Source: Albugo candida
Lineage: Eukaryota
Direction: 5' to 3'
Assembly (NCBI GenBank): GCA_040437565.1
Contig: JBDOQK010000079.1
Coordinates: 62,001-102,080, forward strand
Length of the DNA stretch: 40,080 bases
Below the pieces are notes generated by a model that saw nothing but the letters and a program-made list of their open reading frames with translations, did no database searches and was not told where the DNA came from. Positions 13,288 through 33,294 of this stretch are shown here, one piece after another. The position numbers were made by a program, and so were the translations under genes. Each line of letters opens with the position of its first letter. The stretch's first letter is position 1.

Positions 13288-16200
13288 CTCCTTCTTTCTA
13301 GTTGCACTTGAAATTTTGGTGTTGGAAACGCCTTTGTCTGCAAGTCGGCCATCATTTTTGATGTATGCACGTACCTTAGTGCGATAATTTGGTTGACCAT
13401 GTTAGCTCCGACGATTTTAGTCGGACGTCGATATGCTTAGCCTTTACTGAAGTAGCTTCGTTGAGAAACTGACTGATATCCGCCTGGTTATCTATCCACA
13501 AGATCATTGGCTCCTTCAATTTTGATGTTCAACTCTTTTAACAATTCATTTGCTCTAAGTAATTCTTTCGATGCTGCTACGAACTCCGCTTCCATCGTCG
13601 ATAATGCCACTGAGTGCTGCTTTTTGCATGACCAGCTGATCGCCATTCCGTTCAAAATGAATGCTGTACCAGATACGCTCTTTCTCGTTTCCTCATCCAT
13701 CGCATAAACAGTATCTGAAAACGCTTCTAGTGTGACTTCTCTGGGATTGGTGCATACTTCACCACCCGATTAGAGCTTTAAGACCTTTAGTACCCTTGAG
13801 ATGCTTCACCACTCTCAAACCTAACGCCCAGTCAGCTGTTGTTGGTGCACGAGTACGTCTCGTCAGCTTGTGTATAGCGAAACTGATGTCTGGACGAGTG
13901 CAACGCGCAAATTATAAAAAACTTCCCGCCAAAGACTAAGACTTCTTGATCGCTGGGTTATTGATTGAACGCATCTCCAAGCGGTCCGAATTTGTTGTTG
14001 TGCTATCGCTGTAATCTTGCCGGTAGACGTGAGGACCGGATGCGCTCAATGCAGACCCATTTTCGTTTTAATTCACATATGGACGGCTCCTGATCCAAAG
14101 AGTATCCATCTTCTTCGCTGTATTCGCTGTAACGAACTCGCAGTCTCAGGAGCTTGCTGGCGGGACCGAGATTCTTGATTGAAAGACTTGAAAGACAATC
14201 AAACATCGACTCGATTCTCAAAAGACTTGTCCCGGTTATCAGTATATCGTCGACATATAGCCACAAAGCCGTAATTCCATTCGTGACTTGGTCGTAATAT
14301 AAACACAAGTCTGTGAGAATTTGCTCAAACCCTGCATCGCTCAGCTCTTCATGTAAAAGGTGACTCCATAGCCGTTCTGCTTGATTCAACCCAGATAGAC
14401 TCTTTTGTAATCGCAGTACCACTTCATCATGACTTGTAACACCGAGTGCATCCATATTTTGGAAACCGAAATGGCCATTCCTTGAGGCACGTGCAAGTTC
14501 AGGTCCAAGTTCTTTTCTGTTGGTGCCTTCTCATACGCGTTAGGTACGTCCCCATGCCTCGCTGGCATTCCCCAGATTCTCGCTAAAGCTAGTATGATCT
14601 TTGCTGTCTCTAAATCCATGACTGCTGCAAATGTCAGATCGTAGTTGGCTTCTAATACTTGTACGCTCACGCAGGCAACCATTCTAGCCTTGAACCGTTT
14701 CAAATTCCCGTTTGCGTCCGTTTTTTCTCTTGAATACCCACTTGGTATGTAAGGCTTTGATATCTTTGGTTCCGGTACCATCGCCCATGTTTGGGTTTCC
14801 TCCAGTAAGGCTGGTTCTGCTTCTGCAGCCTCCTTCCATTCGACTTCCTTTACTGACTTCTTTGCTTGGTTGTACGTCTTTGGATACGGCCCAATAAGTA
14901 CTGAAACGACCTCTCGAGCTGAAGCTTTGCCTCCTTTTCTTCTGATAACCATCTTGTTTCGTGGATCCTTCTTGTTGAGATTCGTTCATGTTCTTGTAGC
15001 AGTTGTGCTGATTCCCCTTTAACGTTATTAGACTCATTGGCTTTCACGTCAGCATCTGTTAAATCCTGTTGACGTCTCTTGGAATTTTAATTTCCATTTC
15101 TCCTTCCAACGTTGACCCAATATGTGAAATGTGTTGGGTATTAATGGCAGTCTTGATTCGGGTAGACAACACTATACCCTCTGGTTTTATCACATTTTCC
15201 GATGACAATGCTTCGTTCACTTCGCTTTGCGAGAGACTTTTTTCCACTCCAAACTTGAATCGAACAAGGTGGGCCGAATGTTACGACATCAACTAGACTT
15301 CTATCCTTCCCGGTCAGTACTTTCAGAGGGGGTTGTCTTCCTTCATTCGCTCTAGCTGGGCTTCTATTGATGATAGGCGTCGCAAATTCAGCGGCATCTA
15401 CTAAAAAAAGATAGCGCCATGGAGCTCCAAATATCATAGACCGCACTAGTTTCATGACTTTCCTATGGATTCGTCCAGATTTACCAATCGATGCTTGGTT
15501 TTCGGCCTCACTGATTTGCCTTCGTACTCCCCCATCTTTGCAAAAAAGTTCGACATTTCTGTTTTCTGCGCCTCCATCAGTTTGTAGAACATGAATCTTG
15601 TAATCAAATCGCTTCCTGAAGTAAATCAGGAAATCTTCGAACTTTATAGCTGCTTCACTCCTAGTCTGGCTAATAATACCCGACTATACTTCGATATGTA
15701 GTCGATGCGATGAAATCAGCCAAGTATCGATTTCCACGTCGGTCTAGAGGTATGATCGGCCCTTCAGATCACTGCATATGACTCCACCAACTCGTTCCGT
15801 TGGTGCGTTTATACCGATATCTTTTCGAGACTGTTTGTTCATTGTTTGCTTGCTTTCCGCGCAAGTATCGCATTTCAATCGGTGATGGTCATCAATCTCG
15901 GTCCCTGATTCCGGAAGCTTTGTTGTACTCTTAATAGTACCGTAATTTAGAAGACCAAATCGTTGATGAAAGTGTAGAAGACTTCTCATCTTCTTGTTTG
16001 TTCTGTACACGGACTCAATTGAAGCGAGTATACCCATAACACTTGATACGCGTTCTCGACCTTCTGTCTCAATAAGGAGATCGTTCTTGGCCATATTTAC
16101 TTCGAACACGAACGTGCTATCAGAAGTACGTTAAACAAATCTCGATCTGTCAGGTGGATACATCAACTTGCATCCCTCTGCCTTCAACTTTCCATACGAG

Positions 16201-17418
16201 ACAAAGTTCCAAGGGAGGTGTTCCGAATATTGCACATCGTTTAAGAGAACATTCCTCGGTAACCCGTCGACTGTTGCGATAATCTTCGCCGATCCTGTCC
16301 ATCTCATCTTCATTTCTTTCCCATTTGGAAGTATGCCTGATTCGTTGCACCTGTCGATGTATATCCGTTACGAGTTGCCTGCCGATTCCGTCTAGAATCC
16401 ATACTGTCTTCGTTTGTTCCAGCGCAGTACTTTTGCATTTAATCCCTAAAACGATGTCTTCATCGCTGATGGAGCTTTGATGCCGGCAATCCTTTTTCAT
16501 ATGTCCATTTTTCCCGCAATTGTAGCAGTTCATTCGCCTCTTCGGCTTCGATTCCCTTATCCCACCGATCCGGTCGCGAGTCCATTTATTTGGCCTTCTA
16601 GGTGCATCGCTGATATCTGAATCAATAAGCTGGGTAAATTGACACATTTCCTCGGCTTGCCGTCTGGTGTCTTCCCTCATTATGTTGACACGGGCCATCA
16701 GAGCTTGTTTGGAATCAGGTCTTGCGTACTTGATAACGCTTTTCAGAGACATATCATCTGCATTATCGACTGCTTCACTCACTGACTGCCGACATGAATA
16801 GAAAATGCTCGCTCCAAGAACATCCACTCGGTTTTTTGCGGTAAAAAATCGTGTCGCGTGCGTTCTGGTGGTATTGGTCCGAAACACTTCGTTAATCCGG
16901 TCCATCACTTCTTCAACGCTAGATCACTGTGTCACCATTGAGGTACTTGCTGCTCGTAATAAGTGAGCGCTTTGCCACTCAGATGCCGCCCTAGGCAGTC
17001 CAGCTTCACCTCTTCACTCCAAATACCGCCGGATGCTTGTTGGGCATGCGATAGTTTCCTTCCCGTCGAATGGCTGAATTGCGAGCTTCATATCCCTTTC
17101 TGACAAGAATCTGACTTGGTTGAGCCGTCCAGCGCATTCTGTTGCATCGCATAGACAAATCTTCTCTTAATCACGCTTTCACGATGCTGTATCGGTCGCA
17201 TCTAGGGATGACATTTTCAAACCCTGTCCTTGGTTGCTTGGTCCGGCAAATACGCTTTCCGTACGCGCAGGTGGTGGTACGGGCGAGCCGACTCTCCGCT
17301 CGGTTTCGATCTTGTCCATTCGATTTCTGAGTGTCTCCAGCAGCAGCATCATTCGGTCCATCTTCGACTCATCTGATCCGTAGAATTATTCAATGGTCTT
17401 GGATGGTGGAATCTTCAC

Positions 17419-21207: not shown

Positions 21208-22703
21208 TCACATCCGATAACTGCTGATCAATAGCGAGTTGATAGGTGGAAGCATGTTCCGTGTGGCTTCTATTGTGCATTGTGTCAACCCAAGTGGAGG
21301 CAGATATGACGAACTATTCCGACTAATGGAGGAGACTGGATCCGTGAGATACTTCAAGCGAGGTAACGTCGCTCGGTGTGAATGAGCGGCGTCTTCTTTT
21401 ACTGAGCTATCATCTTGTTTTGTAGAATCCTTCGAACTGGAAGTTGAGGTTGGATCTGTTGAAACGTCCCGTCCAATTCGCTCTTCTTTGCCACGAGGAT
21501 CATGAAGAAGTAGAATCAATTTCCATTTCAGTTTATCCAGCTGCTTTTTGTAGGTCTGTCGCTGTTCTTCACTCAAATGGGATGCAGCGTGCTCGAGTGA
21601 TTCGATACTTTTGCGCAAACCAGTGATTTGTCGATGTGGCCATCGAGCAATTCCTAATTGTCGACATCGCTTTTTCAGTAATGTGACGCTAATTCCAAAT
21701 TGATCTGCAACGAGCACAATCGGTTGCTCAAAATACGGACGGAGATGTTTGATGGTGAGACTTCCACTCTTGGACCCAGCACTTGATTGCTGTTCCGAAG
21801 GACTTGTCATTTTTATTTGCTCCATAGAGGCCATCAGCCGCATATGTTGTCGGGATAGAAATCGTGCTGTCAATACTGATGATTTCGATGTTTGACGACA
21901 TTTGTAGACGTTTGGATCGCAGTGCAACTGTACCAAGNNNNNNNNNNNNNNNNNNNNNNNNNNNNNNNNNNNNNNNNNNNNNNNNNNNNNNNNNNNNNNN
22001 NNNNNNNNNNNNNNNNNNNNNNNNNNNNNNNNNNNNNATCTTGTTTTGTAGAATCCTTCGAACTGGAAGTTGAGGTTGGATCTGTTGAAACGTCCCGTCC
22101 AATTCGCTCTTCTTTGCCACGAGGATCATGAAGAAGTAGAATCAATTTCCATTTCAGTTTATCCAGCTGCTTTTTGTAGGTCTGTCGCTGTTCTTCACTC
22201 AAATGGGATGCAGCGTGCTCGAGTGATTCGATACTTTTGCGCAAACCAGTGATTTGTCGATGTGGCCATCGAGCAATTCCTAATTGTCGACATCGCTTTT
22301 TCAGTAATGTGACGCTAATTCCAAATTGATCTGCAACGAGCACAATCGGTTGCTCAAAATACGGACGGAGATGTTTGATGGTGAGACTTCCACTCTTGGA
22401 CCCAGCACTTGATTGCTGTTCCGAAGGACTTGTCATTTTTATTTGCTCCATAGAGGCCATCAGCCGCATATGTTGTCGGGATAGAAATCGTGCTGTCAAT
22501 ACTGATGATTTCGATGTTTGACGACATTTGTAGACGTTTGGATCGCAGTGCAACTGTACCAAGCATGACGATTTGGAGGATTCAGGCATTCGGTCCAAGT
22601 ACCGCAGAGGGGACGAATGAGCTTCTGATGAGAGATTTGTTGCGTCTAAATGTAGATTATTCCACCATGTGGGTGCTTGTGGTTGTTTCGTAGTGGATAG
22701 CAT
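21208..22703 (-). CDS. RWP-RK domain transcription factor (one ~289-aa gene, artificially duplicated across a gap)
   Basis: LRPYFEQPIVLVADQFGISVTLLKKRCRQLGIARWPHRQI is the RWP-RK domain. Collapsing the 626-bp offset duplication gives one uninterrupted 870-bp ORF from ATG 22703 to stop 21208. Confidence 0.92.
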
Positions 22704-23538
22704 CTGGCTCTTTGGATGTAACGGAGAAATAGGTTGTGCTTAGGCAGCGCTTATTGTGTATGTATGCGTATGTCCCGAAACTCCCTTTTGCGAGTCGAAA
22801 AAGTTGAGTGCCGAAGAATGTAAATCCGAAAATGAATACATTTTGTAGACCAAATTGTATTAGATTTTGTGAAAGGACCTACTCGCTCTCGAGTAGCCTT
22901 TAAAGAAAGTCGCAATCGAGCTATTTGGACGCAAAATTCTCTAATGTAAAAACACCTTTCATTTCAATTTTACAAGTGAAATATATTGAATCAGAAACTC
23001 GCGGCAGAAAAAGATACGAAGCAGCGGTGGAAACACTAAGGAATACAATAATGTAAAGAGCCAACAGGAGAAAAAACATGTACCAACGAGGTTTTCCTTC
23101 GTGACAAGAGCAACATCTGCATTGATTTTGATAAACCTGATTATGAACTTTTCGAATAATTATAGGTACGCCTGATCTCTCGGATCAGGAGCAGGAGAGA
23201 GCACACTGTTTGTTACCGTCATCTAATTGGCCGATAATCGGTCATCGACGATTGGTCAAAATCAGCGCGTTGGCAATGTCATTTTATACCATCGCTACCT
23301 TCTCACTACCTTCTTGCACAACTGCAAGCGCATTAGTGACGCACGGTTTGCGGCTAGAAAAATGAGTCTGTATTTCCACATGTCGGTCTGCATCTTTAAT
23401 TGACTTGAATGAAGTATGTCCATCATGAGTAATTTTTGCTCAATCTGAACAATTCTCTCGCATAGCTATCATTCTTTTCATCACTCCAAATTCCAAAATT
23501 GTGAGAACCGGAAAGGTAAATCTGTATACTGAGCGAAA

Positions 23539-24549
23539 ATGACGGACGAATTTGAAGTCTTCAGCAATGAAACATTCACTCCATACCAATTTGAAGGATT
23601 TTTCACACAATCGGATGACAGTGCGCTGAGTAACGTAGACCCACTTTATGTCACAGCACCAATCTCCGATATATATCATGATGTGGATGCGAAAGCAGGC
23701 ACGGTACAAACTCCGTCTTGCAATGAAAGTCCCAAAGATATTTTCGATTTTCCTGGTGACGACTGCTTCAATGGGTACGGGCAAATCTATTGCCACAACG
23801 AGCACCATGATCCTATTATAGAGATCGATGACAACACGATCACATATCTAGCGGTGGAATCCATACATTATGAAGAACCAATCAAGTTCGAGCCTGCTTT
23901 GGACTCAATAGATGAAGCAGTCAAAGAGACTTTGCCTCTTTTCGACAACTTCCCAGTATACTTGTTGGAACCAGAGTCAAACGTAACTTCTGAGCACTTG
24001 ATGACGTGGCAAACTCTTCTGTCGAGCGCATCGCAAGAGCCGATAAACTCTTCAACTTTCTTATCTTTGGATTGGGAAGAAAGCCTCGTGACAAGTCCAA
24101 AGCCTGAAGTAAAAATCGTCAAAAAGTCACCAAAACAAATAAATCGAGGTAAAGCGTGCACTGTACCCAACTGCACACGTCGTGCTCAATCCAACGCACG
24201 CTGTAAGGCCCATGGAGGTGGTTCTCGATGCCGATTTCAAGAAGTCGATGGAACAAATTGTACTCGAAGCTCACAAGGTCGCGGTCTTTGCCGAAGCCAT
24301 GGAGGAGGTAAGCGTTGTGAGATTGTAGGATGTCATCGTGGTCAGCAACGCAAAGGACTATGCTACATCCATGGAGGAATACGCCAATGTCAAATCCCAG
24401 CATGCGTGAAGAAAGATCGTGGTAACGGCTTTTGTATCGCGCATGGTGGCGGTAAACGATGCCAATCTCAATTTGGTTGTGTCCGAGCTGTACGAAGGGG
24501 TGACTTTTGCCACTCTCATTCAAATGAACTTCTTGTGGCCAGAAAATAG
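23539..24549 (+). CDS. WRKY19-like C3H zinc-finger repeat protein (CxxxxC...CxxHGG repeats) with acidic N-terminus
   Basis: Intact 336-aa ORF with five repeats (CKAHGGG, CRSHGGG, CYIHGG, CIAHGGG, CHSH). No WRKYGQK motif. Confidence 0.9.
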   Translation: MTDEFEVFSNETFTPYQFEGFFTQSDDSALSNVDPLYVTAPISDIYHDVDAKAGTVQTPSCNESPKDIFDFPGDDCFNGYGQIYCHNEHHDPIIEIDDNTITYLAVESIHYEEPIKFEPALDSIDEAVKETLPLFDNFPVYLLEPESNVTSEHLMTWQTLLSSASQEPINSSTFLSLDWEESLVTSPKPEVKIVKKSPKQINRGKACTVPNCTRRAQSNARCKAHGGGSRCRFQEVDGTNCTRSSQGRGLCRSHGGGKRCEIVGCHRGQQRKGLCYIHGGIRQCQIPACVKKDRGNGFCIAHGGGKRCQSQFGCVRAVRRGDFCHSHSNELLVARK

Positions 24550-25090: not shown

Positions 25091-28084
25091 CTAACGACAA
25101 GTCAGACGCTTGACCTTATTGCTCCACATTTCTTTCAATCGTGCAGCTTTGGCTTTTCCTTGAAAATACTGCTTTTTGTTTGCGCTTGTTATCATTCCAT
25201 TGACAGAAATCTCTGAACACAAAAACGGCATATCGTTTCGATGGAATGCATACAAAATAAGTGATTCAGAAGGTGATTTGGGCGTTGACAACTTCATTGA
25301 TGCAGGATCATTCCCGAAAGACCCTGGACGTGATTTCCTTAATGTAATGAACGATCCTAATCGCTTGGAAAAGCTCTTCATGCTTGTAGCCGAGTCTGTG
25401 GACGTGCGTTTGGATGCGTCAGAAGTGATACTTTCGACTGAAGAAGTCCGAAGTACGCTTTCCGGAGAATCTTCTGACACCGTTTCCTGAGGAGATAATG
25501 ATGCGTTTGAAGAGGTTGAGGTCGGAGACGTCCGTCGAACTACTTGTTTACGTATTGCTTGATAAAGTGAGCTGAAGTTTGCGCCATTCCGAGGAAGTGC
25601 TGATTGATCGGGTGCATGAGTATATAGCATTTCCTCCTGCGAATTAGACTGCTCCATTTCCAGGACGGTGATTTTCCTGAATTTGGTGAAAGAACTTGCC
25701 AACAAAGCTTGCTCAATTTCTTGCGGGAGGCATAGTAAGATGCAGTCACGTTGCGGGTAATGGGCGAAAATGGATGCGAGGAATCGGACAATGGACTGCT
25801 GATACTGCTTCTCGTATGCTTGATGTATGCTAAAGTGTGAAATTGCAATGCAATTGTTCCGAAGTAGTAGCCATTCAATAGCTGCAATGAAGAAAGAGGC
25901 AATCGCACTCATGTCGTTCGTACCATCCTGTTGGATTATGTCACACACGGGGTGAAACACTTCCAACACCTTATTGAGATTTGCATGATATGCTTCGAGA
26001 CGCACTTTTACTACTTCCAAGGTGTCATCGTCTCTTATAATACACCGTGACTGAATTTGAGGTGGTGGAGGATTCATTTCTTTGTGGTATGAAAACTTTG
26101 TTATTGGATCAATCAGACGCCCGGAAATTCGATAGATCACTTGTTCGTCTGGCACTTGCAGTACAAGCATTGCGTCTGGAATGATATCACGTTCCAACAT
26201 GGCTCGAGCCTGTAACTCTGTGCGAGGAAATCCATCCAAGAGCCATCCATATTGCTGACAATCTTCATCTTGGAGACGATGTAGAATCAAGTCGATCATG
26301 ATATCATCTGGGACCAGTTGCCCAGCATCCATGTACGCTTTGGCTTTGACACCTATGGGAAGATCGTTGTGGATGGCACTACGCAAGATATCTCCTGTAG
26401 ATACATGGACGACGCCATATGCTTGAACAATACGTTCACATTGAGTTCCTTTTCCTCCTGCGGGTGGTCCGACAATGACAAGCTTTGGAGGCGATTGCAC
26501 TCGTAATGGGCGAAGCCACTGCTTGGCACGATACACTTCTCTGATTATTCGATCAGAGACTTGAGCAGGAGACTCCATAGCGTTCACAGAGATCGTTTGG
26601 ACCTGTAGTTTGGAATAGACAGCTTGTATGGTGAGGCATGTGTCAGTATACTTGATCAGACGTCTTCGGATTGTTATCACAGAATCATCTGTTTGGTGGA
26701 CGACCCGACTAGCGATGCTGGCTGGAGGAGGATTGTGTGTCATATGATATCGTTTACCAGTGTGAGGATCAATTCGACCACCTAAAACGCGGTCAACTAC
26801 TTCATCTTCAGGAAGGTCCAGAATTACAAGCATGTCGGGGATGATTTTGGCTGCCAATAGTGCGTTTGCTTGCTTTTGCGTTTTGGGAAACCCATCCAAT
26901 ATCCATCCTCGCGAACGGCAGTCTTCACGTTTCATCCTGTCCGCCAAAACTTTCACGATCAAAGATTCTGGTACGACCTCACCAGCATCAACGAATATCT
27001 GAATGCGTTGGCCAAAATGTGTACCGTACTGTGCATGGGATCGGAGTAAATCCTCAGTGGAAAGGTAGACAAGCTCAAACTCTTTGGCCAAACGCTCACA
27101 TTGTGTTCCTTTGCCGCTTGCCGGAGGTCCACACATGATGATATTTAGTGGTAAAGTAGCCGTCTTCGCAAGCGAAAAAGCTTGCTGAGGTTTTGTTGCA
27201 TGGACCCAGTCTCTATACATTCCACCAAACATCTTGGCGTACATGTTTGCGTGGGCATACGCATCCAAAGGAAGATGGTTGAAATCATCTGTTGTACATG
27301 CCACTCCAATCGTTTCGCTCCGATCTTTTTCGACGTCAGCTCTGTGAGCGATAAAACAAGCTTGATGATCATCTTGCTCCACTTGTTCCAACAAGCCTTT
27401 GAAGGATGTCATATTGTATGGCTGCAATTGATATGCGCTATCTTTTTGCTGCAAGAGAGCTTGTATTTGTATGAGTTGGTCCGCATCATTCGTCAGCTTT
27501 TCAGCTCGATCAATCATCAGATTTTGCATATGTGTGCAGTATTGCGTTCGATCGGCGTGGTACAAGTAGAGATGAGCGCCAAAAGACGAGAGAACCGATT
27601 CGCGTGATGTAAAGCAGTGAGGAAAGACATTGAGTGTTTCCAAATCAAGCTCTGCGTTTGTCGGCAAAGTTATTTGTTGCAATTTGTTGTACGAATGAAA
27701 AAGGTGGTGGAAGAAACTTGTGACAACATTACAGTGAGACGAATCGGTACACTGAGCAAAAGATGTGATGACCAGACAAGTTCCTTGGCCAAGCATTTGT
27801 TGCATTGGCTCATTATGTGTCAAATGAGCTTGAATTTCACAATAGCTGGGTGACGCTTGCTGTGCTTTAAAGAATTGATTGCTGAGCGCCATGAATGCGA
27901 TTACTTTTTCCTCATTGTGGTCGCACGAAGTTTGGACTGCGATCAACAATGTGGAAGCTGTTTTAGGTGCTTCTTGTGGAGAAACACCAAAAATCTGGCA
28001 GTGAACTCTCTGTACCGGCGAATCAAGCGCACTTACGGCTTCGGAGTCGGATTCATCGTACTTGCGAATATGTATACTTTCCAT
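25091..28084 (-). CDS. Tandem adenylate kinase domain protein with CFAP61-N-like flanking domains
   Basis: Long open frame with two AK domains: GPPASGKGTQ..GWILDGFPKT..GRIDP (~27145-26540) and GPPAGGKGTQ..HVSTGDILR..GWLLDGFPRT (~26485-25880). The ORF-track start at 28306 is TTG. ATG 28084 (997 aa) follows an Inr-like TCATTTCCAA; ATG 28261 is an alternative start. Confidence 0.9.
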   Translation of the reverse strand: MESIHIRKYDESDSEAVSALDSPVQRVHCQIFGVSPQEAPKTASTLLIAVQTSCDHNEEKVIAFMALSNQFFKAQQASPSYCEIQAHLTHNEPMQQMLGQGTCLVITSFAQCTDSSHCNVVTSFFHHLFHSYNKLQQITLPTNAELDLETLNVFPHCFTSRESVLSSFGAHLYLYHADRTQYCTHMQNLMIDRAEKLTNDADQLIQIQALLQQKDSAYQLQPYNMTSFKGLLEQVEQDDHQACFIAHRADVEKDRSETIGVACTTDDFNHLPLDAYAHANMYAKMFGGMYRDWVHATKPQQAFSLAKTATLPLNIIMCGPPASGKGTQCERLAKEFELVYLSTEDLLRSHAQYGTHFGQRIQIFVDAGEVVPESLIVKVLADRMKREDCRSRGWILDGFPKTQKQANALLAAKIIPDMLVILDLPEDEVVDRVLGGRIDPHTGKRYHMTHNPPPASIASRVVHQTDDSVITIRRRLIKYTDTCLTIQAVYSKLQVQTISVNAMESPAQVSDRIIREVYRAKQWLRPLRVQSPPKLVIVGPPAGGKGTQCERIVQAYGVVHVSTGDILRSAIHNDLPIGVKAKAYMDAGQLVPDDIMIDLILHRLQDEDCQQYGWLLDGFPRTELQARAMLERDIIPDAMLVLQVPDEQVIYRISGRLIDPITKFSYHKEMNPPPPQIQSRCIIRDDDTLEVVKVRLEAYHANLNKVLEVFHPVCDIIQQDGTNDMSAIASFFIAAIEWLLLRNNCIAISHFSIHQAYEKQYQQSIVRFLASIFAHYPQRDCILLCLPQEIEQALLASSFTKFRKITVLEMEQSNSQEEMLYTHAPDQSALPRNGANFSSLYQAIRKQVVRRTSPTSTSSNASLSPQETVSEDSPESVLRTSSVESITSDASKRTSTDSATSMKSFSKRLGSFITLRKSRPGSFGNDPASMKLSTPKSPSESLILYAFHRNDMPFLCSEISVNGMITSANKKQYFQGKAKAARLKEMWSNKVKRLTCR

Positions 28085-28375
28085 CGGGACTTGGAAATGA
28101 AGTAGGTGTGAGCGGTTCTGAGCAAGTGGAGAAATGAAACAAGTTGGACTAAGAAAAAGAATACGCAGGCAAAGAATACGTTTTATTTCATACGTAGTTA
28201 TGATAGCCAGTGGAGGAGATACAAAGAGGTGGTTTTTCCGCACGAGTACCACATTTCCCATTCGATTCGAATCCGAGCCGGAGCTGTGGCTACGCTCTGC
28301 ATCCAATGACGCCGAGCTTAGGTTAGCGACTTAATTGAAGTAATACGGTACATATCACACAAATTCTACTCAAAA

Positions 28376-30772: not shown

Positions 30773-31705
30773 TTAATGAAGAATACTTGGGAATGAAAAG
30801 TGATTACTTGCCAATGTGTTCCACACCTGTACCTTGGCCCTAACGAAGCTCTTAAAGGTAGATCTGTCAATACACACAATTGCAAGCTTTGTCCTCCACC
30901 GAAAAATTCGCATCATGTCCAGCATTGCCGTTAATGCTAAATGGCTCGCTTCCTCAGGAGGATATCGATTGTTGCCTGTGGATATGGATGCAAATGTAGC
31001 GCAATCGATGCCATCACTGTTCCGAATCTCTCGAAGTGCCATCACGTACGCCTCGTACAGCCGCAAGTCGCATTTGCTTTGTTGATGATAATACGGTCCT
31101 ACACAATGTATCAACTTCTTTACTCCCTGTATGTTGAACGCAGGTGTTGGATATACAAAAGAACCGTGCTTCTGGCTGAACGTGGTCCTATTTTTGATGA
31201 GAAAAGAGTTTAAATTCGGGCCTGCGAGGCTGTGGATTCTTCCGGCTACACCGATCGCCGGATTAAGCAAGCCACCAGAAGTCGGGAAAGCAATGCAATC
31301 GACTTGATGTCCATCAATTTTTGTCACACATCCAATATCACCTTCGATTATAAAAACATTTTCCATAAAGCAGCGATGCAACGTTGCAATGGCGAGATAA
31401 TTTTTCATTTCGAGACATCCAACTATAACATCACACTCGACCGGTGACTTTAAAACTTCAGTTTTGCTTGTGAGCGACTTTCTGGAGCGTGAGTGCTGTG
31501 GTGTACTTGGAGGTTTTGAATTGAAAAATGAATCACCGATGTTATAATTTGCTTTCAGTAAATATCTCCATTTTGACGCATTGACTAGATTCTGAATTCC
31601 ACGATGTGTCGCTTGTACGGCAATGCAGTAATGCTCAAGCTCTAATGGCTCCAGGAACGGTATGATAGGACCAAACAAATCATAACAATCCGACAAGCGA
31701 CCCAT
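30773..31705 (-). CDS. Macrodomain (ADP-ribose-binding, Appr-1''-p family) protein with F-box-like N-terminus
   Basis: Intact 310-aa ORF with macro motifs IIEGDI, VDCIAFPT, GVAGRIHSLAG, KKLIHCVGP and ATFASISTG..RYP. The N-terminus LSDCYDLFGPIIPFLEPLEL...WRYL is F-box-like. Confidence 0.87.
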   Translation of the reverse strand: MGRLSDCYDLFGPIIPFLEPLELEHYCIAVQATHRGIQNLVNASKWRYLLKANYNIGDSFFNSKPPSTPQHSRSRKSLTSKTEVLKSPVECDVIVGCLEMKNYLAIATLHRCFMENVFIIEGDIGCVTKIDGHQVDCIAFPTSGGLLNPAIGVAGRIHSLAGPNLNSFLIKNRTTFSQKHGSFVYPTPAFNIQGVKKLIHCVGPYYHQQSKCDLRLYEAYVMALREIRNSDGIDCATFASISTGNNRYPPEEASHLALTAMLDMMRIFRWRTKLAIVCIDRSTFKSFVRAKVQVWNTLASNHFSFPSILH

Positions 31706-33294
31706 TGCGAATTGATCTATTGAGCGGATTGTGCACTCACTTCCACCAGTTTAAAAATTGCATGATGGACGACCTAACGGTCGGTTCAATAGAAACAACG
31801 TGTTTCAATCACGATGACGCGTGATGGCAGTTGCGGTGCGTATTTTGGCCAACCGCTTCTTCGGACTTCATTTTTGCATCGGGAAACTTTATTAAGTAGG
31901 GGAATCCCTTAGATCATTCCCTTCTAAAGGTTTTACTGCTCCAAATAGTCAGATCAGATATTTTGTGCAAGTGCGTATAGATTTTTCTCATAGGCATTTA
32001 TGGTGTAGATAATGCCACTTCGAATATGCGGCGTACCCAAAAACGTTGCATAATTGCGCGCAAACTTGTTAATTTAGATAATTTAGAACGCATGCTGAAG
32101 AAAGCCGTTGAAGTTGGTCGCTGTGGGTTTTTCATCAGCAACACATTTATTGTAGCCACGCTAGCCTTTTATCTCAGTTAGCAACAACGTTGCTGCTACA
32201 AGGAGGAATATACTCCAGACCACACCATCATGAATTTCAAACATGGACAGCATGCGTCGGCGCGAACAGCAAGGCAAGGTCCACCTAACTCGCCTCAGCC
32301 CTCCAAAATCGTCGGGGCAATTTATTCTCTCAATAGTTGAGCAAAATAAATGATCGATTAAGACTCAAATAGTTTATACAAGAGGCGATATTTCTTCTAA
32401 GCATGTATCTCCAATACGCTCACTTCTGCATTACCGGTCCATCATCTGGTAGGACGCAATTGAAGGCCTGCAAAGAACCAGTTCATTCTGTACTATAGAT
32501 ATTCTCAAAAAGCGCTGCTACAAAACAAAGAGTGCGGATACACGGCAGGAAAAAAAGAAATAACGCTACATTCCTTAACGTACATTGAAGATTATGAAGT
32601 CACATTCACAAATGCAAGAATTGTATCATTATCATTATCATAAAAAGAGTAGACAGCAATCGGCCTCTCCCGCTGGTCAAGCTCTCTCATACTACCCAAA
32701 GGTAGGCTGCTCAAGTTCGCAGAGCAGACAAGACACGATGCTTTCTTTTATTTATTTTTAGTTGTATTTTTCATCACCTGCATAAAACTAGTTACTGGAT
32801 TATGTTGTTTTCTCTTAGAAGCTCCATCGGTCGAACTCGTTGTTCTTCTGTTGGACCAGGTATTGTCAAAGAAGTCAGGGGTCCTTCATTTGCGCTTGGT
32901 ATTGGCAATTCATCGGTTCTCATTTGTTGATTGATTTGAGCCGTCATTGCTGCCAAATTCGGGCATCGAGAGCAAGAAATTCTTTAGGCGTAAAGGACGG
33001 TACCATACGCTGTACTGATACATCATCATCAACCAATCCCAATAGCATCTCATGTTGATTTAAACGATCAGCCACCAAGGAGACATATTTTGCATGCTTT
33101 CTAGGTTCTTGTCTTCGTATCCATTGTACAAGGGCTTTGACTTCTTCCGGATTATCTCTCATTCCCATGAAGGTGAAGATCCTAGTGGGAATACCAACGA
33201 GATCAGAGTCAGTCAGATAGCCTGTTATTCTCATTGATCACAAGTCTATAAAGTTGTGTACAGTATTTACCAAGAAAATAATAATATAAAATAA

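Follow-up and report, generated by a model that had tools for sequence, protein, structure and literature searches.

A truncated CFAP61-like protein of Albugo candida with an adenylate kinase pair apparently inserted within a GNAT-like domain

We analysed a 40,080-nucleotide stretch of the Albugo candida genome (contig JBDOQK010000079.1 of assembly GCA_040437565.1, positions 62,001 to 102,080 of the forward strand; hereafter the window), focusing on a gene on the minus strand at window positions 25091..28084. Its 997 amino acid product contains two adenylate kinase (AK) domains, flanked on both sides by sequence that resembles the N-terminal region of CFAP61, a component of radial spoke 3 (RS3) of the axoneme. 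The reading that we favour, with moderate confidence, is that this protein is a truncated oomycete paralogue of CFAP61 in which an AK pair has been grafted into the second of two GNAT-like domains, and that it docks on the axoneme and regenerates ATP there. Below, T denotes this truncated paralogue and its orthologues, and F denotes the full-length oomycete CFAP61.

Kinase domains and CFAP61-like flanks of the window protein

The coding sequence of T (25091..28084, minus strand) is a single unbroken open reading frame (ORF) of 997 codons followed by a stop codon at 25091-25093, within a stop-to-stop span of 25091..28330. Along its entire length the protein shares 83% identity with A. laibachii F0WC21, and it falls into one 90% cluster with A. 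candida CCI11005.1 (997 amino acids); the public models from both species match it in length. All of the sequence strings quoted in a first-pass annotation, which had been made from the DNA letters, were recovered in the translation: IHIRKYDESDSEAVSAL (residues 4-20), ETIGVACTT (residues 257-265), NNCIAISHFSIHQAYE (residues 743-758), FLASIFAHYPQRDCILLCLP and LYAFHR. Some automatic gene calls (P0002, 1056 amino acids) begin at an in-frame upstream ATG, 59 codons before the MESIH start (window 28085-28261, minus strand). Orthologues and NCBI models begin at the MESIH position, 28084.

The window protein has a strong Pfam ADK match in two stretches (E 2e-79, 265 bits). They correspond to AK1 (residues 311-525, 26510..27154, minus strand), delimited by Pfam and by alignment to maize AK 1zak and AK8, and AK2 (residues 530-738, 25871..26497, minus strand), delimited by Pfam and motif alignment. 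Taken as a unit, the pair has the two-domain kinase AK8 as its best solved relative by sequence (9fqr_G8, E 9.4e-59, query residues 310-726 to chain residues 74-479), which bears out the first-pass call of two complete AK domains. By fold, the pair matched 9fqr_Oh with a VIA Z score of 22.8 (410 residues aligned, root-mean-square deviation (rmsd) 22.4 across both domains), and VIA Z scores to AKs were 20-23 for the model of the window protein. AK1 alone matched both AK8 domains alike (100.4 and 100.5 bits). Because AK1 fits either AK8 domain equally, we claim an AK8-like arrangement and not AK8 orthology.

The positions of the AK catalytic motifs were read from the alignments to 1zak and AK8. 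AK2 has every motif that was checked (GPPAGGKGT, TGDILR, LDGFPRT, GR..DP....YH and RDDD....RL), and these are kept in 17 of the 18 aligned T rows, the remaining row (P0026) being cut off within AK2, and in all 10 rows of the full-length paralogue F. AK1 has an intact P-loop (GPPASGKGT) and two replaced motif arginines: both Albugo species have DGFPKT for DGFPRT, and the R-x-D-D motif reads Q-T-D-D in A. candida (HQTDD) and L-T-D-D in A. laibachii. In the T proteins of Phytophthora and Nothophytophthora the AK1 lid is absent. By catalytic motifs, AK2 is a full member of the family and AK1 a partial one, and the activity of the module (2 ADP <-> ATP + AMP) is putative. The first AK of Albugo F is degenerate (DGYPLT, no lid motif, KQPDD) and its second AK is intact.

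The regions on either side of the kinases were compared with CFAP61 as profiles built from 10 sequences (N flank) and 6 sequences (C flank). Against an alignment of nine AK-free CFAP61s that includes P0045, the N flank matched with an hhalign probability of 99.5% (E 3.3e-22, 256 columns, P0045 residues 8-263) and the C flank with a probability of 97.0% (E 8.1e-11, P0045 residues 264-314). The best PDB match of the N-flank profile was Chlamydomonas CFAP61 (8glv_LZ, E 7.9e-5), with the next match at E 0.27, and the N flank aligns to Chlamydomonas FAP61 as far as residue 248. The top four PDB matches of the C-flank profile were all CFAP61, from Chlamydomonas (residues 395-448, E 3.4e-5), cattle (386-439), T. 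brucei (324-372) and human (387-426). The CFAP61 motif that the first-pass annotation had cited is indeed present in the human protein, at residues 387-426, although it lies beyond the Pfam CFAP61_N model and not within it. Six residues (F214, H215, R216, P220, F221 and L222) are invariant in the C-flank alignment of 6 sequences, and the consensus of AK-free CFAP61s likewise reads LYxxHR.

Structural comparison of the N flank gave a similar result. For an AlphaFold2 model of the N flank alone (mean predicted local distance difference test (pLDDT) score 63), the top four Foldseek matches were CFAP61 chains, namely 8j07_d0 (E 6.6e-10), 9fqr_Xg, 9d2f_J and 8glv_LZ (range to 5.6e-6), and GNAT acetyltransferases started at E 1.4e-5. 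VIA ranked 9fqr_Xg (Z 14.3, 162 residues aligned, rmsd 3.0), 9e5c_5d (Z 13.7) and 8glv_LZ (Z 11.7) ahead of GNATs (Z at most 11.2), by a small margin. The resemblance of the flanks to CFAP61, which the first-pass annotation had proposed, was thus recovered by hhalign, by PDB profile matches and by fold matches in which CFAP61 chains came first, and with profiles it far exceeds what chance would give; similarity to CFAP61/GNAT was found by both profile and structure for the N flank and by profile for the C flank. Chain 9fqr_Xg (1236 amino acids) is labelled 'CFAP20' in the PDB name file and is CFAP61 by sequence (E 5.8e-47 to an insect CFAP61).

Single-sequence searches were less sensitive in Albugo. 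The Albugo N flank alone (residues 1-300) had no Pfam match at E<=10, and the Albugo C flank alone reached 17.1 bits to CFAP61_N (PF16092; profile positions 96-177, E 0.0048), under the 27-bit cut-off. CFAP61_N was matched at E<=1 in four of 10 T family members, in every case before the kinases, and two orthologues pass the cut-off: P0012 with 45.0 bits (residues 43-291 to profile positions 2-246 of 264) and P0007 with 35.2 bits. A word-indexed search with the P0012 N flank returned 11 matches, all of them AK-bearing orthologues. Compared directly, residues 98-147 of the N flank aligned to residues 7-58 of the C flank (hhalign E 0.0046, probability 7.5%). The weak C-flank match to profile positions 96-177 reflects paralogy between the two GNAT-like domains.

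The two flanks meet at residues 263|264 of P0045, and they are directly contiguous in insert-free CFAP61. Because the flanks abut in AK-free CFAP61, we interpret the AK pair as an insertion, in agreement with the earlier proposal that it lies inside a CFAP61-like region. A whole-protein AlphaFold2 model built from 18 sequences (mean pLDDT 67, predicted template modelling score 0.58) has strands (E) and helices (H) at E189-193, H197-212, H228-237, E241-248 and E257-265 followed by a long helix (H273-297) before the kinases, and at E745-753, H761-775, E781-787, H792-809, E941-948 and E953-960 after them, with residues 791-939 disordered. Read without the kinases, the second GNAT-like domain has the order b1-a1-a2-b2-b3-b4-a3-b5-a4-b6-b7, which is that of the canonical GNAT topology. 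The predicted order of elements supports a position of the AK pair in the beta3-beta4 hairpin of this domain, and the loop insertion suggested in the first-pass annotation is therefore retained. A GNAT fold for domain 1 was also found by structure (3pgp_A, Z 11.2-11.7, 140-141 residues aligned, rmsd 3.3-3.4), and secondary-structure order is the sole basis of that assignment for domain 2. The best 50 matches of the whole-model fold search were nearly all kinases; the others covered GNAT-like domain 1 only (3pgp, 4pv6 and 9mto) and are uninformative on domain 2.

In this arrangement (all features on the minus strand), GNAT-like domain 1 occupies residues 1-178 (27551..28084) and forms the first part of CFAP61_N, as judged from the order of AlphaFold2 strands and helices, the fold matches and the 99.5% hhalign match. 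The N-terminal half of domain 2 (beta1, alpha1, alpha2, beta2 and beta3) spans residues 179-270 (27275..27550), from the predicted elements and the CFAP61 alignment. A long linker helix, residues 271-310 (27155..27274), leads out of the GNAT fold into AK1; H273-297 is predicted in both AlphaFold2 models, and its motif Y..LF..MYR is conserved in orthologue alignments. The core of the C-terminal half of domain 2 (beta4, alpha3, beta5 and alpha4; residues 740-812, 25649..25867), placed by the predicted elements and the 97.0% hhalign match, follows AK2. It is separated by a Ser/Thr-rich loop (residues 813-938, 25271..25648) from beta6-beta7 (residues 939-962, 25199..25270; predicted E941-948 and E953-960), which carry the LYAFHR motif. 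The loop is predicted to be disordered (pLDDT <50 over residues 791-939), is far longer in Albugo than in other genera, which show alignment gaps there, and is 72% identical between the two Albugo species, compared with 80-88% for all folded parts. A short basic tail (residues 963-997, 25094..25198) with no further Pfam domain completes the protein, which ends 35 amino acids past beta7.

Acetyl-CoA binding in GNATs involves motif A (Q/R-x-x-G-x-G/A), which follows beta4. A regular-expression scan of the window protein for this motif found none after beta4 of either GNAT-like domain; the sole match, at residues 96-101, lies before beta4 in an Albugo-specific insert. Because the motif is missing after beta4, the GNAT-like domains are probably non-catalytic. 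The C-terminal half of CFAP61 is missing from T: neither the Pyr_redox_2-like domain (PF07992, an FAD/NAD(P)-binding-like Rossmann domain) nor the CFAP61 dimerisation domain (PF23150), which is present in F and in canonical CFAP61, had a Pfam match in the window protein at E<=1. The first-pass annotation had noted the absence of the FAD/NAD-like half; the Pfam scan agrees and adds the dimerisation domain to what is absent.

On P0045, Pfam CFAP61_N covers residues 10-263 and so ends exactly at the insertion site. The CFAP61_N model comprises GNAT-like domain 1 and b1-b3 of domain 2, and the rest of domain 2 falls under no Pfam model. We had considered that CFAP61_N is whole before the kinases and that the C flank is a duplicated repeat, and we dropped this because the C flank maps directly after the N flank in CFAP61.

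Full-length CFAP61 with the same insertion and the proposed history of T

An exhaustive profile search with the N flank identified 55 proteins at E<=0.001. Full-length matches (~1,000 amino acids or longer) align at their own N terminus, except for P0062, a gene call whose N terminus is cut off. Scanning 13 of these matches and P0118 with Pfam distinguished AK-free CFAP61s (Chromosphaera P0039, Pieris P0044, Telonema P0047, and P0045, P0050, P0042, P0058 and P0069) from CFAP61s with kinases between CFAP61_N and the remainder of the protein. The latter were Plasmopara halstedii CEG40254.1 (1737 amino acids, two ADK and CFAP61_dimer), Saprolegnia diclina XP_008617970.1 (1745 amino acids, three ADK, Pyr_redox_2 and the dimerisation domain), Phytophthora infestans PInf_021790 and P0062. 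With the C-terminal half of Plasmopara CFAP61 as query, 42 proteins were retrieved, 38 of which have both ADK and CFAP61_N in the precomputed Pfam list; the matches came from eleven named Phytophthora species, Plasmopara, Nothophytophthora, three Pythium species, Globisporangium, Lagenidium and Aphanomyces. A domain scan of 124 proteins revealed the order N flank, kinases, C flank (Nd-AK-AK-Cc) in all oomycete F, with three AKs in Saprolegnia and four in Aphanomyces. The same AK insertion is found in F (~1,700 amino acids) of Phytophthora, Plasmopara, Pythium, Lagenidium, Saprolegnia, Aphanomyces and Albugo. The insertion is not peculiar to the truncated copy; F has it too, and it is older than the duplication.

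The length of the gap between the Nd and Cc regions varies among CFAP61s. It is <50 amino acids in P0045, P0055, P0064, P0052 and P0065, with no insert at all in P0045 and P0055, and about 100-270 amino acids in many others, and it holds one AK in P0118-P0120 and two in peronosporalean oomycetes. Gaps of ~400-520 amino acids are present in P0042, P0058 and P0069, which were scanned with Pfam and had no match there; P0048 has a similar gap (~540 amino acids), judged by length only. The beta3-beta4 site of GNAT-like domain 2 is an insertion hot spot across eukaryotic CFAP61.

Phytophthora infestans has both paralogues, T (909 amino acids; PInf_021794, XP_002997823.1 in T30-4) and F (PInf_021790; XP_002997819.1). 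Neighbouring locus tags of T and F, on contigs of equal length, were found in that species and also in Pythium oligandrum (010368/010369), P. brassicae (007066/007064) and Nothophytophthora (00003587/00003590), and in Lagenidium (2651 amino acids) and Globisporangium (2666 amino acids) T and F are fused into one gene model, T first. F is not within the 40,080-nucleotide window. The Albugo F is P0062, which is 99.4-99.9% identical over 1516 amino acids to parts of A. candida CCI44297.1 and KAL0586634.1 and contains CFAP61_N, two ADK (Nd-AK-AK-Cc), Pyr_redox_2 and CFAP61_dimer. Within A. candida, T and F are 33% identical. The A. candida F models are giant fusions of 3841-4888 amino acids, one of them named 'UDP-glucose 6-dehydrogenase'; F lies at residues 684-2199 of CCI44297.1.

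A maximum-likelihood (ML) tree was reconstructed from 25 rows chosen from the 124 proteins (791 columns), leaving out cut-off Logan models, near-duplicates and AK-free CFAP61s. The T clade had full support (100/100), with Albugo T as sister to the remaining T (97/96). The peronosporalean F formed a clade that includes Albugo F (92/99), and the T and F clades grouped together to the exclusion of Saprolegniales (91/83). Forcing the three Albugo rows together cost 55 log-likelihood units (p-AU 0.0001 in the approximately unbiased (AU) test), with the caveat that this grouping was specified once the tree was already known. The branches of both Albugo lineages are long, a bias toward joining them and not toward parting them. 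A truncation of Albugo F specific to Albugo was ruled out by the tree and the AU test. The occurrence of a full-length CFAP61 in A. candida, together with the separate T clade, upholds the description of T as a truncated CFAP61 paralogue. We propose that the AK pair was inserted in an ancestral oomycete CFAP61, all named full-length oomycete CFAP61s examined carrying the AK insertion, and that T would have arisen when the gene was duplicated in tandem on the peronosporalean stem and one copy then lost its C-terminal half.

A putative axonemal role and competing readings

We suggest that the GNAT-like domains anchor T to the axoneme, close to the base of RS3 or directly at it, as CFAP61 does, and that AK2, perhaps with the partly degenerate AK1, would catalyse 2 ADP <-> ATP + AMP beside the inner dynein arms of the zoospore flagellum. 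CFAP61 builds the RS3 stalk/base (PMC4395127; PMC6678824), and RS3 in mouse and Tetrahymena carries AK7 and AK9, AK8 being assigned to RS1/RS2 and not RS3 (bioRxiv 10.1101/2025.05.19.654877). The same preprint reports that axonemes of the Tetrahymena FAP61 knockout have ~50% of AK activity left after salt extraction. Judelson et al. (PMC3471859) describe two flagella-associated AKs, PITG_18377 and PITG_18379, the latter highest in zoospores; no link of these identifiers to T or F was found, and they are not used as evidence here.

In favour of this reading are the even conservation of all folded parts between the two Albugo species (80-88%), the intact T ORFs in the named genera, which are zoosporic, and a diverged T remnant in Peronosclerospora sorghi. 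Several observations weigh against it. Both the axonemal location and the physiological role of T are putative, and a search for sequencing runs listed no RNA run for this stretch. Entry into RS3 may require the domains that T is missing (dimerisation and Rossmann-like). The AK module is decaying in part, as seen from the lost Albugo AK1 arginines and from the AK1 lid missing in Phytophthora and Nothophytophthora. The Albugo N flank has drifted past Pfam detection, and with 1.28 changes per column the branch of Albugo is very long. How the halves of GNAT-like domain 2 pack against each other is deduced from the order of predicted elements, in a model of intermediate confidence (pLDDT averaging 67, with 62-82 from beta4 to beta5). 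The pattern in non-zoosporic oomycetes amounts, among the matches listed, to one fragment, from the downy mildew Peronosclerospora, which is not known to form zoospores. This Peronosclerospora sorghi protein (P0035, KAI9915047.1) is 271 amino acids long and 36.5% identical to P. infestans T over 208 amino acids; it stops where the AK1 P-loop is expected, and its sequence looks like a decayed T remnant.

Alternatively, T might be a neofunctionalised, non-axonemal adenylate kinase that no longer enters RS3, its CFAP61-like domains serving another partner or being merely tolerated. We consider this rather unlikely. It would fit the loss of the CFAP61_dimer and Pyr_redox_2-like domains, the long T stem (0.62) and Albugo branch in the ML tree, and a T-specific conserved tail (VKGLGVKG...W) that is found in Pythium and Phytophthora and is absent from F. 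However, the GNAT-like parts are as conserved as the AK parts between the two Albugo species (80-88%), an intact T ORF occurs in at least five named genera besides Albugo, which are zoosporic, and the sole relative found in a non-zoosporic taxon, among the matches listed, is the diverged Peronosclerospora fragment. The proposed docking of T on the axoneme could be taken further: oomycetes may have built RS3 ATP regeneration into CFAP61 and then split the work, with F building the spoke and T acting as a minimal kinase-bearing docking module elsewhere. This scenario is a long shot, and if it were true, T might sit in one of the two dissimilar flagella of heterokonts or at places along the axoneme where a complete RS3 is lacking, and would mark how much of CFAP61 is enough to dock there.

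Two further explanations concern the architecture itself. That the AK pair lies between two separate domains, the C flank being an independent partial GNAT-like repeat, is very unlikely. Pfam CFAP61_N does look whole before the AKs in P0012, and the C flank weakly resembles beta4-alpha3-beta5 of domain 1 in the Pfam and direct hhalign comparisons described above (E 0.0048 and 0.0046), but each flanking stretch holds only half of a GNAT fold (b1-b3 and b4-b7, respectively), and since the stretches are contiguous in insert-free CFAP61, the Pfam boundary merely coincides with the variable insertion site. Residues 231-290 were also modelled with higher confidence in the full-length protein (pLDDT 61-77) than in the N-flank-only model (45-63), a comparison that is confounded by alignment depth. 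An artefact, with pieces of CFAP61 and an AK gene brought together by misassembly or by fusion of gene models, is extremely unlikely. Fused models do occur at oomycete T/F loci, as in Lagenidium, Globisporangium and A. candida (the last with 4888 amino acids), but the window has one stop-free ORF and the collinear architecture, with conserved junctions, recurs both among the 18 aligned orthologues, which come from independent assemblies, and in F.

Comparison with known systems sets T apart in several respects. Like T, CFAP61/FAP61 (C20orf26; 8glv_LZ, 8j07_d0 and 9d2f_J) has two N-terminal GNAT-like domains, T being collinear with CFAP61 residues ~1-450; unlike T, it has the Pyr_redox_2-like and CFAP61_dimer domains. 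At the insertion site T has an AK-AK insert of ~470 amino acids, whereas insert-free CFAP61s have nothing and human and Chlamydomonas CFAP61 have ~120-150 amino acids. The sister paralogue F (e.g. Plasmopara halstedii CEG40254.1) shares the insertion site and the Nd-AK-AK-Cc order with T but is ~900 amino acids longer, including the Rossmann-like and dimerisation domains, and both of its AKs keep all motifs except in Albugo F. AK8 (9fqr), at 30% identity, is a free-standing protein of ~480 amino acids, whereas the AK pair of T is embedded in a CFAP61-like protein. AK activity in axonemal scaffolds is also described for AK7/AK9 (RS3 head) and for CPC1/SPEF2 and FAP42 (central pair); these are separate polypeptides or other scaffolds, whereas the T and F kinases lie covalently inside CFAP61. 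The literature portrays RS3 as a metabolic hub (bioRxiv 10.1101/2025.05.19.654877; PMC6678824), and in recent cryo-EM and proteomic work its AKs are separate subunits.

Public names of these proteins include 'adenylate kinase' and 'hypothetical protein', and the A. candida protein appears in UniRef as 'CFAP61 N-terminal domain-containing protein'. Because such names exist, the co-occurrence of CFAP61 and AK domains is already visible in databases. A literature search (supplements not included) found no published description of a CFAP61-AK fusion, of its place inside the GNAT-like fold or of the truncated paralogue. AKs lying covalently within the RS3 protein CFAP61 would provide independent evolutionary support, of the fusion type, for the metabolic link between RS3 and AKs, and T hints at how much of CFAP61 may be enough for docking. 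The arrangement would also be a clean case in which domains have been inserted into a beta-hairpin within a pseudo-enzyme fold, at a variable-insertion site where the boundary of Pfam CFAP61_N splits a structural domain. A practical gain is improved annotation of proteins filed as 'adenylate kinase' or 'hypothetical protein'.

Other ORFs in the window

A convergent neighbour of T at 23533-24549 (plus strand) encodes 338 amino acids with three WRKY19-type zinc fingers (PF24906, E 7e-25). At 21208-22739 (minus strand), two ORFs overlap in different frames (21208-22125 and 21870-22739) with one RWP-RK match each, which suggests an intron or a frameshift. The window further contains a Macro-domain ORF at 30773-31750 (minus strand) and retroelement fragments (RVT_2 and a zinc knuckle) at 14386-16923 (minus strand).

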